DNA of 64,000 nt from Minisyncoccota bacterium. GTDB lineage: Bacteria; Patescibacteriota; Minisyncoccia; Phycocordibacterales; WO2-35-19. The stretch is from the NCBI GenBank assembly GCA_041664625.1, contig JBAYKK010000003.1:4331-68330 (forward strand), given 5' to 3'. Numbering within the stretch: the stretch's first letter is position 1; each line of letters begins with the position of its first letter. Made by a program: the position numbers and the translations under genes. A model generated the notes under the pieces. It was given only the letters and a program-made list of their open reading frames with translations, made no database searches and was not told where the DNA came from. Positions 1,101 to 19,172 of the stretch are shown one piece after another.

Positions 1101-2234
1101 CTACCCCAATTCTTCGTGAGAAAATACAATAGAGAGAAGTTCCCTAGCGATTTGGTCGGCTGCTTCGGGTTTGAAAAAGTTTTTGGCACTGACTGTCATT
1201 TTTTCTATTATTTCTGGGCTTTCAATAATTCTTTTTATTTCTGCTAAAAGGATATGAGGTTTTAAATTTTCTTCTTGGATCACTGAGCATGCGCCCGCTT
1301 TGGCGTAAGCAAAAGCGTTTTTGGTCTGGTGATTTTCGTTGGAATTGGTGATGGGTATTATGATAGAAGGTTTGCCCCAAGAAGCTATCTCAAATATGGT
1401 AGAACCGGCACGACTTATCACCAAACTAGACACTCCCGCTGCCATACGCATTTCCAAACTATTTAAATAACCAAAAGGTTTGTATCTTTTTTTGTTGGAA
1501 TTTTCCAAGAGAATAGCCGAGGCTGATTCTTTGATCACCTCGATGTTTGCTCCCCCGGTTTGATGTATAACTTGAAAATTTTTGACCAAATCTGGCAGGA
1601 TATCTAAAATAATATTGTTTATTATCTCAGCTCCTTGTGAACCGCCCATAATAAATAGAGTTGGCACACTGTTATCAAAATCAAAAAACTCAGCTGCGCC
1701 ATTATCAAGAGGCGTTAATCTTTCTTGCAAAACTGGTTGCCCGGTGTAAGCGGTTTTTTCTTTGGGGAAATATTCGGCTGCTTCTTTGTATGAAAGGGCT
1801 ACCCGATTGGCAAATTTACCAGCCCATTTGTTGGCTCTCCCGGGGGCCGAGTCAGATTCATGAACAAAAACAGGGATACGCAAAAGTCTGGCCGCCAAAG
1901 TCACAGGGAAACTACCATAACCGCCTTTGCTGAAAACTACATCGGGGTAAATATCAAAAATATCCAAAAGAGCACCCAAGCTCCCCCAAAGGGTTTTGAA
2001 AAAATCAGTGAAATTTAGTATCGAAAAATATTTGCGCATTTTGCCGGCAGTGATTTTTTTGAATTCGATATTATGGTCATAGAGTAGGCCGGGGTTGTAA
2101 GGAGAGGGGGCAAAGAAAAACATTTCCGGTGGTAAAAACTTTTTTTCTTTGGCAATTTTTTGGATCGATTCAGCGACAGCTATGATCGGATAAAAATGGC
2201 CTCCTGTACCTCCGCCTGTAAAAATTATTTTCAT
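1101..2234 (-). CDS. murG: UDP-GlcNAc:lipid I N-acetylglucosaminyltransferase MurG
   Basis: 377 aa; N-term MKIIFTGGGTGGHFYPIIAVAE glycosyltransferase-28 signature; dcw synteny with ftsW/mraY. Confidence 0.9.
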   Translation of the reverse strand: MKIIFTGGGTGGHFYPIIAVAESIQKIAKEKKFLPPEMFFFAPSPYNPGLLYDHNIEFKKITAGKMRKYFSILNFTDFFKTLWGSLGALLDIFDIYPDVVFSKGGYGSFPVTLAARLLRIPVFVHESDSAPGRANKWAGKFANRVALSYKEAAEYFPKEKTAYTGQPVLQERLTPLDNGAAEFFDFDNSVPTLFIMGGSQGAEIINNIILDILPDLVKNFQVIHQTGGANIEVIKESASAILLENSNKKRYKPFGYLNSLEMRMAAGVSSLVISRAGSTIFEIASWGKPSIIIPITNSNENHQTKNAFAYAKAGACSVIQEENLKPHILLAEIKRIIESPEIIEKMTVSAKNFFKPEAADQIARELLSIVFSHEELG

Positions 2235-15412: not shown

Positions 15413-17146
15413 TTAGTTAGTTTTGGGTAGTTCAATGATAAATGTAGTGCCTTTGCCCACACCTTCGGAAGAAACTTTTATATCACCACCATGAGCCTCT
15501 ACCATTTTTTTGGCAATATAAAGACCTAGGCCGGTACCAGTAACATTGGTCTTGCCTGCATCTTTGGTCCTAGAAAATTTTTCAAAAAGTTTATTCATTT
15601 CGCTTGGGTCGATGCCAACTCCAGTGTCTTTGACGGCAATCTTTACTTTGCCCGCCGTAGCTTCATGTGAGGACTGAGCTTTGTCTATTTCGTTTGATAC
15701 GGAGATTTTCAAACTACCTTTGAGAGTATATTTGAGAGAATTATCAATGATGTTACCGATCACTTGTTTTATTTTGTTTCGGTCGGCGTTAATTTTTGTG
15801 TCTAAGCCCTGAGGTATGTCAACTTCCAAATTCAATCCCGAGTTTTCAATATTTGGTTTTAATTCGTTGATGACTTCTAAGGTTAATTCAGCTAAATCAA
15901 AATTACTTTTTTCGTATACCATCCGACCTTGTTCAATACGGGAAATATTTAAAAAGTCAGCCACTATGTTTATCAAATTTTGGCAAGATTTCATAATGGT
16001 CTGGACTGAGTCGGTTGCTTTTTGAGGCAAGACTCCAAAATCCCCTTCTAAAAGCATTGAGGAATAGCCCTTGATAGCCGTAAGTGGCGCTCGTATCTGA
16101 TGACTGGCTAACGACAAAAATTCTGACTTCATTTGGTCCAGTTCTTTTAACTTCTCATTGGACTCGGCCAAATCTTGCGCCAACCTTTCAATCTCCTCTC
16201 TTTGGGCAACTTCTTTTTTTACTGAGCGGATGAGAAATACTCCAAATACTATTGATGATACTAGCGTGATGCCAGTGAGTATTTGGTTTGTATTTGTTTT
16301 GATGAAGAAAAATTGAGAACCGATTAAGATCATTAATCCCATCATAAGGATTTGAGCACCAAAAATTTTGATCTTAAAGGTTTTGTATTTCACTATTACA
16401 TAAGTCAGAAATACTAAAAAGATTGGAATACCAAAAATACCATATTGCCCCACTGTCCAACTATAATCTCCAAATATCGAATTAGCATCAAACAAACTGC
16501 CGATTACATTCCCAAAAGAGAAAGCAATAAGGAACCCTAAACTTCCAAAAGTAATTAACGCTATTTTTGGGCGTTTTTCTTTTAATTTATTTTTTATGTA
16601 ACTTTTGATGGCAAAGAAAAGCATCCAGAGTATGAATATACATTCAATAAAATAGCCATAGTATACGAGAGGCCCTTCTACTGCATCCCTATCGCAGTTT
16701 GATATATCGTAGCCCAATAATGTAAATTTGGTGGAAGCCAAGATTACAGTGGGCGTCAATAGTGTAATGATGATTGCCTTTTTTATAAAAGATATATCTT
16801 TTTCGTCAATAAATAAATAAAGAAAATAAAGTAAGCCCGCATAGACCATCGGTTCAACCATATTTATAATTGTCCAAACATACATAGTGACTGAGGGTTT
16901 GTCGGTAGCCCAAAGTATTAAATCCCCCAAAAGCCATATACCTAAAGTAAATACGGTGGCTAAAAGTATTTTTGTGGCTGGAGTTTTATTGCTTTTGACA
17001 TACAAAAATATCACTAAAATAAGGGAAGATATCAAAGGGAAAAGGTGTGAATAGTAAATAATCGGGTCAAAAACATTAGTAGAAAAAATCAAAAATTTAC
17101 TTGATCCCCATTCGCAGGCCGAAATTAAATTTTGTATCTCGTTCAT
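15413..17146 (-). CDS. sensor histidine kinase with N-terminal ~8-TM sensing domain (no adjacent response regulator)
   Basis: 577 aa; H-box SHQIRAPLTAIKGYSSML; HATPase N/G boxes; polytopic N-terminus. Confidence 0.8.
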   Translation of the reverse strand: MNEIQNLISACEWGSSKFLIFSTNVFDPIIYYSHLFPLISSLILVIFLYVKSNKTPATKILLATVFTLGIWLLGDLILWATDKPSVTMYVWTIINMVEPMVYAGLLYFLYLFIDEKDISFIKKAIIITLLTPTVILASTKFTLLGYDISNCDRDAVEGPLVYYGYFIECIFILWMLFFAIKSYIKNKLKEKRPKIALITFGSLGFLIAFSFGNVIGSLFDANSIFGDYSWTVGQYGIFGIPIFLVFLTYVIVKYKTFKIKIFGAQILMMGLMILIGSQFFFIKTNTNQILTGITLVSSIVFGVFLIRSVKKEVAQREEIERLAQDLAESNEKLKELDQMKSEFLSLASHQIRAPLTAIKGYSSMLLEGDFGVLPQKATDSVQTIMKSCQNLINIVADFLNISRIEQGRMVYEKSNFDLAELTLEVINELKPNIENSGLNLEVDIPQGLDTKINADRNKIKQVIGNIIDNSLKYTLKGSLKISVSNEIDKAQSSHEATAGKVKIAVKDTGVGIDPSEMNKLFEKFSRTKDAGKTNVTGTGLGLYIAKKMVEAHGGDIKVSSEGVGKGTTFIIELPKTN

Positions 17147-17363
17147 TATATTTTGGTAAAAATATTTTTTATAGGGTCAAAACTACCGGGAATGTTTTCT
17201 GGGTCAGTGAAAAAGTTTATATCCTCTAAATATATATATTTATAAAAAGAAAAAGATATAGAAAATAATATCAATAAAATAAAACACACAAACAAAACTT
17301 TAGACTTTTTGTCCATATTGGTATTATAACATATTTTATTTTGTAGTTTGTTAAATAAGAAAT

Positions 17364-17386
17364 CCCCCCGCGCGAATCGCAGGGGG
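17364..17386 (-). terminator. terminator of small peptide gene 1
   Basis: ccccccgcg-cgaat-cgcaggggg hairpin followed on the minus strand by a T-rich run. Confidence 0.6.
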
Positions 17387-17397
17387 ACTCTGGTTGC

Positions 17398-17523
17398 TTA
17401 GTTGTCCTTGTCGTCGCTGTCAGCATCGCTATCAGCGTCGTAATTACCGGACACAACAGAATCGTCGTCGCCACAACGGTAGATGATACAACGATCGTCT
17501 GGCACAGTGGAATCACCGTACAT
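17398..17523 (-). CDS. small acidic peptide, paralog 1 (41 aa) MYGDSTVPDDRCIIYRCGDDDSVVSGNYDADSDADSDDKDN
   Basis: Below track size cutoff; RBS aggaaaggag 6 nt before ATG; own terminator; conserved core PDxRCI(I/V)(Y/F)RxG(D/S)DD shared with 18948-19067; ~50% GC. Confidence 0.55.
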   Translation of the reverse strand: MYGDSTVPDDRCIIYRCGDDDSVVSGNYDADSDADSDDKDN

Positions 17524-17628
17524 ATTTTTCTCCTTTCCTCAAGAAGAGCCTAGCTAGCTGCTCTCCCATCCAAAGTACTGGGTTTGCCTGTCTGTGTTTA
17601 GTATGGTCTTAAAATACTTTTTGTCAAT
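17524..17628 (-). promoter_or_regulatory. conserved promoter plus ~70-nt 5' leader of peptide gene 1 (copy 1 of 2)
   Basis: ~85% nt identity to 19068-19172; TTGACA-16/17-cATAcT; leader hairpin GAGAGC...GCUCUU. Confidence 0.6.
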
Positions 17629-17648
17629 AGTGTGGTATTCTTAGGGGT

Positions 17649-18896
17649 ATGTTATTCCCTGAAATAAAAATTGAAAAAAATACAATTAATGGTGCTATTG
17701 TGTATAAACTTTATAAAAAAGATGCTCCTTTGGCCATAAGGTTTACTTTTTTTGCTGGTTCTCGTTTTGATGAAAAACCCGGAGTGGCTCATTGTCTAGA
17801 ACATTTATTTGTAGCTTCTACTTCTTTTTTTAAATCAAAAGATCAGATAGCTAAATATTTGGAACAATTTGGTGGAAATTTTTCAGCGACAACAGGTAAT
17901 GATGTTTTAAGAGTAAATATTGAAATTTCTGATAAAGAAGATATTGAAAAAGCTCTTTTGTTAATGAAAAGTTTTTTAGATAGAAGAATATTTGATAATA
18001 ATGTTTTTGAAAATGAAAGGAAATCTATTTTGTCAGAATTTCTAGAAAAGAAAAGTAATCCGTCTAAATTTGTTTGGGAATTACGAAGGAAAAATTCTTT
18101 TGCAGGAACACCTCTAGAGAACTCTATAATTGGTACAGAACAGGAGGTATTAAATATAACTGTTGACGATGTGATTAAACATCATGATAAAAATATAACA
18201 TCAGGAAAACTAAACATAGTAATTGCTGGAGATTTTGAAGAAAATATTGTTGATAACATAAAACAAAATTTACCTGAAATAAAAATTGAAAAATACTTAG
18301 GTCTGGATAATATTTTTTTTCCAAAAATGTTGCCAAATAAAAATCGCAATAAAATAATTGAAAAAAATATAGCCGACGGAAAACAGGCGTACACCGTTTG
18401 TAGTTTGGCTATATTTGACAAATTATCTGTAAAAGAAAAAATAGCTTTAAAGATATTCAATAATATATTTGGAGTGGGTCGCGGTTCTGTTTTGTTATCA
18501 AACCTTAGATACAAAGAGTCTTTTGTATATTCAGCTTTTTCATCGTTAAATGGGGGCTATGATTGGAGTATTTTTGATATTTATTTTTCTTCAAATTATC
18601 AAGACATTAATAAGTGTATTGAGATAATAAAGCAACAAGTAATAGAAATAAAAAATGGTAAAATCAGTAAAGAAGAATTTGAAAATGAAAAAAATAGAAT
18701 TATTAAAAATTTAAAAAGAGAATTGCAGACAACAAATGATCTGGTCAATTTTTGTGAACAGCTTTTTATATTTGAAGAAAATCTTAGTCTTAAAATGTAT
18801 AAAGACGCATTCGATGATTTAAAATTGGAGGATTTCTTGATTGTTATTAATAAATTTGTTAAAGAAGATCAATTTAACGTTGCAATTTGTAGATAA
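17649..18896 (+). CDS. M16 family zinc metallopeptidase (pitrilysin/insulinase-like)
   Basis: 415 aa; inverted zincin HxxEH motif (AHCLEHLF); M16 N/C domain lengths. Confidence 0.7.
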   Translation: MLFPEIKIEKNTINGAIVYKLYKKDAPLAIRFTFFAGSRFDEKPGVAHCLEHLFVASTSFFKSKDQIAKYLEQFGGNFSATTGNDVLRVNIEISDKEDIEKALLLMKSFLDRRIFDNNVFENERKSILSEFLEKKSNPSKFVWELRRKNSFAGTPLENSIIGTEQEVLNITVDDVIKHHDKNITSGKLNIVIAGDFEENIVDNIKQNLPEIKIEKYLGLDNIFFPKMLPNKNRNKIIEKNIADGKQAYTVCSLAIFDKLSVKEKIALKIFNNIFGVGRGSVLLSNLRYKESFVYSAFSSLNGGYDWSIFDIYFSSNYQDINKCIEIIKQQVIEIKNGKISKEEFENEKNRIIKNLKRELQTTNDLVNFCEQLFIFEENLSLKMYKDAFDDLKLEDFLIVINKFVKEDQFNVAICR

Positions 18897-18901
18897 TTAA
18901 G

Positions 18902-18928
18902 GAAGCCCCTCAAACTGCAAGGGGCTTC
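18902..18928. terminator. bidirectional terminator between M16 peptidase and peptide gene 2
   Basis: gaagcccct-caaactgca-aggggcttc perfect 9-bp stem. Confidence 0.65.
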
Positions 18929-18947
18929 TGTTGGGTTATTTCGGCAA

Positions 18948-19067
18948 TTAGTCGTCCCCGTCCTCGTCGTCGTCGCATGGTTCGTCTGGGTAATCATCGC
19001 TTCCCGCACGAAAAACAATACAACGATAATCGGGAATAGGTTCCTGGATTTTTTCCAGTGTTTGCAT
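18948..19067 (-). CDS. small acidic peptide, paralog 2 (39 aa) MQTLEKIQEPIPDYRCIVFRAGSDDYPDEPCDDDEDGDD
   Basis: RBS gaggaaaggg; conserved core with 17398-17523; synonymous-type nt differences in the core (gac/gat, atc/att, ggc/gga). Confidence 0.55.
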   Translation of the reverse strand: MQTLEKIQEPIPDYRCIVFRAGSDDYPDEPCDDDEDGDD

Positions 19068-19172
19068 GGTATTATCCCTTTCCTCAAGGAAAGCTCAGCT
19101 GGTGCTCTCCTATCTAAAGTACAGGGGGTTGCCTGTCTGTGTTTAGTATGGTATTAAAATATTTTTTGTCAA
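19068..19172 (-). promoter_or_regulatory. conserved promoter plus 5' leader of peptide gene 2 (copy 2 of 2)
   Basis: Near-identical to 17524-17628, including TTGACA, the -10 and the leader hairpin (GAGAGC...GCUUUC, stem kept by G:U/G:C swaps). Confidence 0.6.

Follow-up and report, generated by a model that had tools for sequence, protein, structure and literature searches.

The locus described here raises a simple question: why do two small neighbouring genes resemble each other less than the non-coding DNA in front of them? The window, i.e., the whole analysed stretch of 64,000 nucleotides (nt) from a Minisyncoccota bacterium (assembly GCA_041664625.1, contig JBAYKK010000003.1), contains two short open reading frames (ORFs) on the minus strand, of 41 amino acids (aa; 17398-17523) and 39 aa (18948-19067), and a copy of the same element lies directly 5' of each, on the same strand. 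A sequence-only reading that preceded this work put the identity of the two upstream regions at about 85% and considered the coding regions far less alike, and both statements agree with our measurements. Global alignment of 17524-17628 with 19068-19172 gives 88 identical columns out of 107 (82.2%), and the 97-nt core bounded by the –35 hexamer and the Shine-Dalgarno (SD) sequence is 86.6% identical by blastn, compared to 58% nucleotide and 43% amino-acid identity of the ORFs. Outside the element, identity amounts to 50% in the 3' regions and 52% in the 60 nt located 5' of the –35 hexamer, which is the background for such alignments, and the similarity between the copies stops at the –35 hexamer on one side and at the SD on the other.

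Comparison with other loci shows the element to be the window's member of a multi-copy family of predicted leader RNAs in Parcubacteria (Candidate Phyla Radiation, CPR), and not a private duplication; the family is previously undescribed. We consider it rather probable that the element is a cis-acting CPR leader RNA with a sigma-70-type promoter, which would stabilise the mRNA and present an internal loop to a trans-acting factor.

Other members were identified with a search pattern built from the invariant parts of the element (GTACTNTNGATNGG, 12-36 nt, CTTGAGGAANGG). Exact matches were found on 15 metagenome and 9 genome contigs, the latter named Zambryskibacteria, Parcubacteria or Patescibacteria, with three carrying an automatic "Saccharibacteria" label; viral contigs gave 0 hits. 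The covariance model (R1) finds 33 distinct full-length copies scoring 57-86 bits, plus two short variants, and several contigs contain two or three copies. In the window itself, scanned with filters off, the model has only two matches, at 75.8 and 73.5 bits, the next best scoring 12.7, and an element-derived 22-mer occurs exactly twice, with no occurrences in 100 shuffles. Searches with the peptides in 5.8 and 1.8 billion proteins (a word index, and HMMER over 1.84 billion representatives) returned only P0001, P0002 and P0023, and the loci of the last two, L008 and L009, carry the same leader, in L008 with no gene for an M16-family peptidase nearby, such as separates the two copies in the window. 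The search for orthologues of this M16 peptidase yielded only three useful loci. One of them, L003, with an orthologue 84% identical to that of the window, has the leader in front of a peptide cut to 26 aa and lacks the second copy, so leader copies are gained or lost between close relatives.

No gathering-level match to Rfam 15 (4227 models) was found in the 64-kb window, where at E ≤10 the sole overlap with the element was a 12-bit chance match to Xist_exon1, and no Rfam 15 match overlaps the leaders of L009, L014 and L019. The check for known RNAs found no tRNA or tmRNA, and literature searches returned neither a CPR leader motif of such kind nor anything relevant on the regulation of peptides that are ribosomally synthesised and modified post-translationally (RiPPs) in CPR bacteria.

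The MAFFT alignment of the copies was folded with RNAalifold, which predicts three helices unguided. P1, a hairpin of 5 bp (ACAGR / YCUGU), begins at the third nucleotide of the model. P3 (CUUU / AAAG, 4 bp) abuts the SD and encloses P2, and P2 is an 8-bp covarying hairpin, the one pointed out by the sequence-only reading. P3 and P2 are separated by an invariant asymmetric internal loop, G-GAU / UGA-GG. P1, P3 and the palindromic loop of P2 go beyond the earlier account. In the window, the parts of the element are located as follows:

17622-17627, minus strand: –35 hexamer of copy 1, TTGACA (promoter scan, TTGACA-16-CATACT, 10 of 12 matches)
17600-17605, minus strand: –10 hexamer of copy 1, CATACT (promoter scan)
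17527-17593, minus strand: predicted structured leader RNA of copy 1 (covariance-model match, 73.5 bits)
17577-17591, minus strand: P1 of copy 1, the 5'-terminal hairpin ACAGG / CCAGU, with one A·A mismatch in this copy
17565-17578, minus strand: 5' conserved box of copy 1, GUACUUUGGAUGGG, holding the P3 5' strand CUUU (17572-17575) and the internal-loop bases G-GAU
17542-17567, minus strand: P2 hairpin of copy 1, GGGAGAGC / GCUCUUCU, supported by covariation
17550-17559, minus strand: P2 loop of copy 1, AGCUAGCUAG, 10 nt with an 8-nt palindrome, supported by palindrome statistics
17530-17543, minus strand: 3' conserved box of copy 1, CUUGAGGAAAGG, with the SD and including the internal-loop bases UGA-GG
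17533-17536 and 17530-17533, minus strand: P3 3' strand AAAG and SD GGAG of copy 1
19167-19172, minus strand: –35 hexamer of copy 2, TTGACA (promoter scan)
19145-19150, minus strand: –10 hexamer of copy 2, CATACT (promoter scan)
19072-19138, minus strand: predicted structured leader RNA of copy 2 (covariance-model match, 75.8 bits)
19121-19136, minus strand: P1 of copy 2
19116-19119 and 19078-19081, minus strand: the two strands of P3 of copy 2
19087-19111, minus strand: P2 of copy 2
19095-19103, minus strand: P2 loop of copy 2, ACCAGCUGA, with the palindrome CAGCUG

Covariation was counted on three alignments, of 24, 27 and 33 sequences. Paired cells constitute 97.3-97.8%, compared to approximately 92% in shuffled alignments and 29-68% when the partners are slid by one to three columns. 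Double changes are seen in 19, 25 and 30 cells of the three alignments, with 4.5, 6.5 and 8.2 in the shuffles, and none of 500 shuffles reached the observed covariation score. Folding and covariation across homologous loci, suggested by the sequence-only reading as a check, yielded three helices and more compensatory changes than any shuffle. The double changes fall on six pairs, two of the five in P1 and four of the eight in P2. P1 is 98% paired over 33 sequences and P2 96-97%; for example, one A-U pair of P2 is replaced by U-A in 8-10 sequences and by G-C in two. The arms of P2 include such diverse pairs as GGAGAGC/GCUCUUC, GGGGUG/CACCCC, GGAGUGU/ACAUUCC, GGAAGAU/AUCUUCC and GGAAUGC/GCAUUCC. 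The unpaired GUAC, G-GAU and UUGAGG are invariant across species, while all P2 stem positions and the P1 loop vary, the P1 loops including GCAA, GUAA and UUCG tetraloops.

The window alone would not have sufficed for these observations. The hairpin described earlier, GAGAGC...GCUCUU in one copy and GAGAGC...GCUUUC in the other, is real, but the differences between the two copies are one-sided, C or U opposite G (G:C to G:U), which by itself is weak evidence, and truly compensatory changes in P2 appear only when other loci are added. The earlier reading also allowed that further copies without a compensatory pattern would reduce the similarity to a recent segmental duplication; the copies found number 33, precede unrelated genes and are compensatory at half of the P2 pairs.

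In all, P1 and P2 of the predicted RNA are shown by covariation, and we infer P3 and the geometry of the internal loop. P3 is kept in both short variants, of which one lacks the internal loop and the other lacks P2. The former (L023 4509-4565) reads CUUUG, a 6-bp P2 and GGAAAGG, with GAU on the 5' side and UGA on the 3' side jointly lost, and this joint loss fits an arrangement with the two triplets opposite one another, which would give G·A, A·G and U·U. In the latter (L026 4980-5016), P1 is followed by CUUU-ACACAG-AAAGGAGG.

Pairing is better preserved on one strand than on the other: 97.6% in the sense orientation and 90.2% in the antisense one overall, and 96.8% versus 85.2% in P2 (both partners complemented), where 27 cells are G·U. 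This drop, together with the G·U cells, indicates that it is the sense RNA whose structure is selected, and not a cruciform or operator in the DNA. The sequence-only reading had proposed for the duplicated regions a regulatory element acting on the level of either RNA or DNA, and of these two levels it is the RNA that the data support. The DNA-level explanations, an operator for a dimeric repressor, a mobile repeat or a functionless recent duplication, are largely refuted and in our estimate very improbable. P2 with its loop does form a near-palindrome in DNA, and copies are gained or lost between close relatives, as seen in L003 and in L012, where the leader is found beside an IS30-like ORF. 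On the other hand, the G·U cells would be A·C on the opposite strand, the stems covary instead of being conserved and differ between copies within one genome, the position and orientation of the element relative to the start codon are fixed, and the ORFs and flanks in the window are at background identity. Mobile repeats of the repetitive extragenic palindrome (REP) or miniature inverted-repeat transposable element (MITE) type were considered and rejected, as there are no terminal inverted repeats and all copies face the adjacent start codon in a fixed orientation.

The copy in L012 (358-440) retains P3, P2 and the SD, with P1 and the promoter replaced by unrelated sequence; the adjoining 322-aa ORF (460-1428) looks, by eye, like a transposase of the IS30 family.

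In kind, this conserved, covariation-supported sense-strand structure is a structured cis-regulatory mRNA leader, as predicted from the alignments. It resembles the orphan cis-regulatory motifs of 5' untranslated regions (UTRs) (class "Cis-reg; leader" in Rfam, e.g., ribosomal-protein leaders and orphan riboswitch candidates), being likewise a short structured RNA between the promoter and the SD, in front of several unlinked genes, with covarying stems and invariant unpaired bases. Unlike these motifs, it precedes unrelated small ORFs, many of them similar to RiPP precursors, and not the genes of one pathway.

The position of the predicted RNA relative to the promoter is constant. TTGACA and CATACT, separated by 16 nt, are present in both window copies, as the sequence-only reading had it, although the 5' boundary drawn there, 17628, lies one base outside the –35 hexamer. 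The leader model (AGACAGG) begins 6-7 nt past the end of the –10 hexamer in all copies, and this constant spacing places the likely transcript 5' ends at about 17593 and 19138. P1 would then start approximately 2 nt from the 5' end, at nucleotide 3 of the model. A –35 hexamer TTGAC(A/T) is found about 45 nt upstream in nearly all copies, the exceptions being L012 and L025, and in nearly all copies where the contig extends far enough the start codon is 6-13 nt past the 3' box. It is known that 5'-terminal hairpins stabilise bacterial mRNAs, e.g., the ompA leader. P1 agrees with such stabilisers in its distance of about 2 nt from the presumed 5' end and in having a conserved helix with a free loop; unlike them, it is part of a larger conserved module, and here both the start and the stabilisation are predictions.

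In partition-function folding of 30 leaders at 37 °C, the SD window is unpaired with a mean probability of 0.59 and the AUG with one of 0.64. Thus, the ribosome-binding site is predicted to be open, with only the AAAG at the 5' edge of the SD inside P3, and this argues against both an RNA thermometer and simple masking of the SD. The thermometer, one of the options of the sequence-only reading, would have the U-rich strand of P3 mask the SD at low temperature. The pairing of CUUU with AAAG beside the SD and the proximity of the window cassettes to grpE-dnaK-dnaJ are consistent with it, but P3 covers just the edge of an SD predicted, like the AUG, to be about 60% unpaired at 37 °C, other loci lack the heat-shock neighbourhood, and the downstream genes do not encode chaperones, so this option has hardly any probability left. 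A link to heat shock as such was rejected for the same lack of conservation of the dnaK neighbourhood. Also rejected was an anti-SD switch, with the pyrimidine arm of P2 pairing with the SD: in the alternative helix pairing reaches only 86.8%, and it fails precisely at the positions where P2 covaries.

The invariant bases of the internal loop, framed by covarying helices and found upstream of many unlinked genes, might suggest a riboswitch, in which the loop binds a metabolite or ion and thereby alters ribosome access; lacking a match in Rfam, it would be an orphan class. We regard this as improbable. The conserved core is very small, and an alternative expression platform is not seen, there being neither a terminator nor a U-tract after P2, and the anti-SD hairpin being poorly paired as described above. 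The genes served are neither transporters nor enzymes, and genes for DUF397 proteins are also served by the variant without the loop or P2.

The same bases invite comparison with protein-binding leaders. In CsrA/RsmA leaders, GGA motifs, one of which overlaps the SD, are presented in hairpin loops, and the SELEX (in vitro selection) consensus is RUACARGGAUGU. Here P2 is flanked by two invariant GGA motifs with a spacing of about 30 nt, of which the second lies immediately 5' of the SD, and the leader segment GUACUUUGGAUAGG resembles this consensus; the difference is that the predicted location of the motifs is an internal loop and not hairpin loops. A tblastn search with CsrA and Hfq gave no match in 284 kb, a small part of these genomes. 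A kink-turn was considered as well. It consists of a C-stem, a 3-nt bulge and tandem G·A / A·G pairs leading into the NC-stem on the bulged strand. The internal loop could form tandem GA/GA pairs; however, it has one extra base on the 5' strand and two on the 3' strand, which is the wrong side, and the short variant of L023 keeps G/GG with P3 stacked on P2. The kink-turn was therefore rejected.

One further feature distinguishes P2. The alignment defines 20 distinct loops, and 15 of these have a self-complementary stretch of 6-8 nt; in 23 loops delimited by greedy trimming, 15 are palindromic, compared to 1.65 expected and a maximum of seven in 20,000 shuffles. At least eight different palindromes are observed: AGCUAGCU/CUAGCUAG, UAGCUA, CAGCUG/CCAGCUGG, GAGCUC, CUCGAG, CUGCAG, UGGCCA and UUGCAA/CUUGCAAG. 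Copies residing together often differ in palindrome, as in the window, with AGCUAGCU in copy 1 and CAGCUG in copy 2, and between L023 and L024, whose leaders are orthologous, a double change turns CAGCUG into CUGCAG. The central four nucleotides, which are unable to pair in cis, are palindromic in four versions (AGCU, UCGA, UGCA and GGCC). The most frequent format, a loop of 9 nt, is formed by two nucleotides, a 6-nt palindrome and one purine; in these loops the 3' flank is always A or G, and the 5' flank is AA, AG or GA in six and GU or AC in four.

RNA-RNA pairing is the only explanation on offer for this symmetry, and a possible one. P2 would then be a dimerisation hairpin whose self-complementary loops kiss or form an extended duplex, coupling the fate (stability, translation or processing) of matching mRNAs. 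We hold this proposal as tentative and rather less likely to be right than wrong. It is favoured by the excess of palindromes over the shuffles, by the number of different palindromes with central nucleotides that cannot pair in cis, and by the preservation of symmetry in the double change between L023 and L024. The calculated gain of the extended dimer, from –10 to –16 kcal/mol for palindromic loops and –2.6 and –3.0 kcal/mol for two non-palindromic ones, points in the same direction, these being nearest-neighbour energies that do not model the kissing topology. At the same time, five of the 20 loops are non-palindromic and one variant has no P2; the AGCU core is present in most loops, so that a part of the signal is shared ancestry; and the outer positions of the palindromes could merely lengthen the stem in cis. 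To our knowledge, no functional mRNA homodimer of such kind is known in bacteria. Natural functional RNA oligomers in general have been called rare (PMC7357161).

The loop format resembles that of the dimerisation initiation site (DIS) of HIV-1, whose loop carries a palindrome of 6 nt between conserved purines (PMC7357161). As in the DIS and in the kissing loop of the oskar 3' UTR, the P2 loop contains a self-complementary stretch of 6 nt, which varies in sequence with the symmetry kept. P2 differs in being located in a bacterial mRNA 5' UTR and not in a viral genome or a eukaryotic 3' UTR, in that its dimerisation is a prediction, in that a quarter of the loops are non-palindromic, and in having non-purine bases in some 5' flanks (GU, AC). 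By this analogy, one may speculate that the Parcubacteria leader is a post-transcriptional module shared by a regulon of RiPP-precursor-like and other small-protein genes, in which DIS-like kissing loops of P2 pair mRNAs with matching palindromes, the different palindromes of copies residing together serving as "addresses"; we find this version more doubtful still than dimerisation as such. If true, this would make P2 the first natural signal for the homodimerisation of bacterial mRNAs, and pairing of palindromic loops would bring a mechanism of retroviruses and Drosophila mRNA into bacterial mRNA control.

Taken together, we favour the following role of the leader. Behind a sigma-70-type promoter, the mRNA would begin with an untranslated, structured leader some 70 nt long, with P1 protecting the mRNA 5' end as a stabiliser. 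A trans-acting factor, most likely a protein, with a small ligand also possible, would recognise the platform of P3, the internal loop and P2 beside an open, A-rich ribosome-binding site, and would set the stability or translation of all leader-bearing mRNAs together. As an outcome, units of about 270 nt would deliver short precursor peptides in large amounts and in a coordinated manner, and the self-complementary P2 loops may additionally pair two leaders.

A simpler view dispenses with the trans-acting factor and with regulation. The leader could be a constitutive high-expression or insulator element, comprising a promoter, a 5' stabiliser and a spacer that keeps the ribosome-binding site open. 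RiPP precursor peptides are generally needed in excess over their enzymes. The consensus –35 hexamer, the position of P1 at the presumed 5' end, the mostly unpaired SD and AUG, and the intact genes behind the minimal variants that retain just P1 and P3 are all consistent with such an element. But an open ribosome-binding site does not call for invariant unpaired GUAC, G-GAU and UUGAGG, and the palindromic loops are left unexplained, and hence we consider a purely constitutive leader unlikely, though well worth keeping in view.

Several observations nevertheless weigh against a factor-binding leader. Most features would follow, with no need for a regulator, from a constitutive "strong expression" leader, and no candidate binding protein has been identified. 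Both the transcription start and the RNA itself are deduced from the DNA. P3 has no double compensatory changes, and single-sequence folds of the window copies are no stabler than shuffles (z = +0.75 and –1.5), so the structure of the leader is visible only by comparison with other loci. Moreover, the conservation of the boxes is partly by construction, both being fixed in the search pattern, and the independent support for their invariance comes from only six copies, found via the model or via protein homologues. Two of these six have no internal loop or no P2, and therefore the internal-loop platform seems dispensable for a working leader. GUACUUU is also kept in the copies found by the model outside the search pattern.

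The genes behind the leader differ widely. They fall into at least ten families unrelated to one another, and DUF397 is the only one that Pfam contains. These include acidic peptides of the type MYGDS..C(I/T)(I/V)YRCGDDDSVSSDDY..DSDADSG, the family of the first window peptide; a 64-aa family, MSEKW.DKGVCCNA; a 70-aa family, MGKWTD; a 56-aa family, MNA.VEDEQ; several Cys/Asp- or Cys/Thr-rich peptides; and the DUF397 proteins. The leader is specific neither to the two window peptide genes nor to the M16 locus. Radical-SAM proteins, two of them with SPASM domains, are encoded within a few kb of the leader at L014/L022, L015, L017 and L023, and, judging by such gene context, the cargo is probably in good part RiPP-precursor-like. 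RiPP precursor genes may have dedicated promoters and transcripts, e.g., the structural genes of lantibiotics. The units described here are similar in consisting of a short ORF with its own strong promoter and terminator beside maturation enzymes (radical SAM/SPASM proteins, peptidases), the difference being that one leader RNA is common to precursors of unrelated clusters and to DUF397 proteins, which do not look like RiPPs.

The locus L017 shows how leader and cargo are combined. Its region 1-2837 is syntenic with the surroundings of window copy 1 (16826-17627), sharing the genes for a histidine kinase and a 56-aa membrane protein at 77.6% nucleotide identity, and the promoter with the leader is 92% identical to copy 1 over 102 nt. 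The gene behind this leader, however, encodes a Cys/Asp-rich 41-aa peptide unrelated to the first window peptide, and the place of the M16 gene is taken by a radical-SAM/SPASM gene and a gene for a 195-aa HExxH protein. As read from this alignment, the cargo is swapped behind a conserved leader. In the 64-aa family, four of the seven loci have the leader (L020, L027, L034, L039) and three do not (L003, L037, L038). The cargo change in L017 and the presence of this family both with and without the leader indicate that the leader is a module combined with different cargo.

Outside the window lineage, the acidic-peptide family always adjoins a gene for an HExxH protein of about 190 aa without a Pfam match (L008 10178-10750, L009 245-814, L011 1459-2031, L013 748-1317, L014 166-735, L026 4317-4886, L027 183-761), whereas in L003, L006 and the window its place is taken by an M16 peptidase. 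This suggests that the acidic peptide and the neighbouring peptidase form a peptide-peptidase pair, and the window M16 protein is a possible candidate for the processing enzyme of the peptides. An acidic peptide is likewise adjacent to M16 orthologues at 84% and 49% identity. An obligate link to M16 was rejected, as most acidic-peptide loci have the HExxH protein instead. Beside the 49%-identical orthologue in L006, a convergent gene (1472-1655, minus strand) encodes a 53-aa acidic peptide (MSRPYENELIVPLFCGGGGDGDDSD...) and is preceded by CTGAGAAAGGAGG, where the contig stops.

Gene regulation in Patescibacteria (CPR bacteria) was called virtually unknown in a 2024 perspective (PMC11665869). 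The leader RNA offers a concrete handle on it, tagging a set of jointly controlled small genes, which gene-calling programs often overlook or give a wrong start. Given its link to radical-SAM and peptidase clusters, the covariance model could serve to mine CPR genomes for unannotated precursor peptides, and the leader itself could become a native expression part for the genetic systems emerging in these bacteria.

In the window, the leaders belong to two cassettes arranged around the M16 gene:

17398-17523, minus strand: peptide gene 1, 41 aa, acidic, MYGDS..CIIYRCGDDDSV.. (ORF list; homologues P0002, P0023 and others)
17360-17390, minus strand: terminator-like hairpin with a T-run, closing transcription unit 1
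18948-19067, minus strand: peptide gene 2, 39 aa, acidic (ORF list)
18902-18928, minus strand: terminator-like hairpin closing unit 2, just beyond the convergent M16 gene
17649-18896, plus strand: gene for the M16 (pitrilysin-family) peptidase between the cassettes, context only (Pfam PF00675/PF05193)

With its own promoter, leader, ORF and terminator-like hairpin with a T-run, each cassette appears to be a self-contained unit of about 270 nt. The ATG of the M16 gene, at 17649, is only 21 bp (17628-17648) away from the –35 hexamer of copy 1, and the consensus scan predicts no plus-strand promoter there. Transcription of the M16 gene must hence start inside the peptide cassette or pass across it, running antisense to the leader; the overlap of copy 1 with an M16 promoter region, proposed earlier, is thus unavoidable for any such promoter, but the promoter itself was not predicted. 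No ORF of 150 aa or longer in the window contains CxxxCxxC, i.e., there is no radical-SAM candidate among them.

Leader cassettes cluster in islands. Three of them, in the same orientation, lie within 2.7 kb in L019 (587-3251), with genes for a DUF397-like protein, a member of the MGKWTD family and another DUF397-like protein, and L008 has two divergent cassettes 800 nt apart. In L009 both contig ends (1-16 and 4754-4769) are the same 16 nt of the leader, inverted; the repeated leader evidently breaks short-read assemblies, and copy numbers per genome are probably underestimated.

Some intact leaders precede decayed genes. In L003 (2140-2220, minus strand) the remnant of 26 aa lacks the CIIYRCG core; in L021, after 797, the leader is followed by a 14-aa stub of a DUF397-like gene; in L024, after 9248, by a 12-aa ORF; and in L025, after 7727, by no ORF. 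This would mean either recent decay or an independent role of the leader RNA. In L034 (6922-7191) the called 89-aa product starts at an ATG inside the promoter and leader, reading through the RNA structure, and the true start of this protein of the 64-aa family is probably the GTG after the SD.

The window locus is AT-rich, with approximately 27% G+C around it. The cassettes, at 17340-17630 and 18900-19150, stand out as islands of about 50% G+C in DNA of 20-30% G+C, and the peptide ORFs use codons of the GAC/GCG type, unlike the neighbouring genes.

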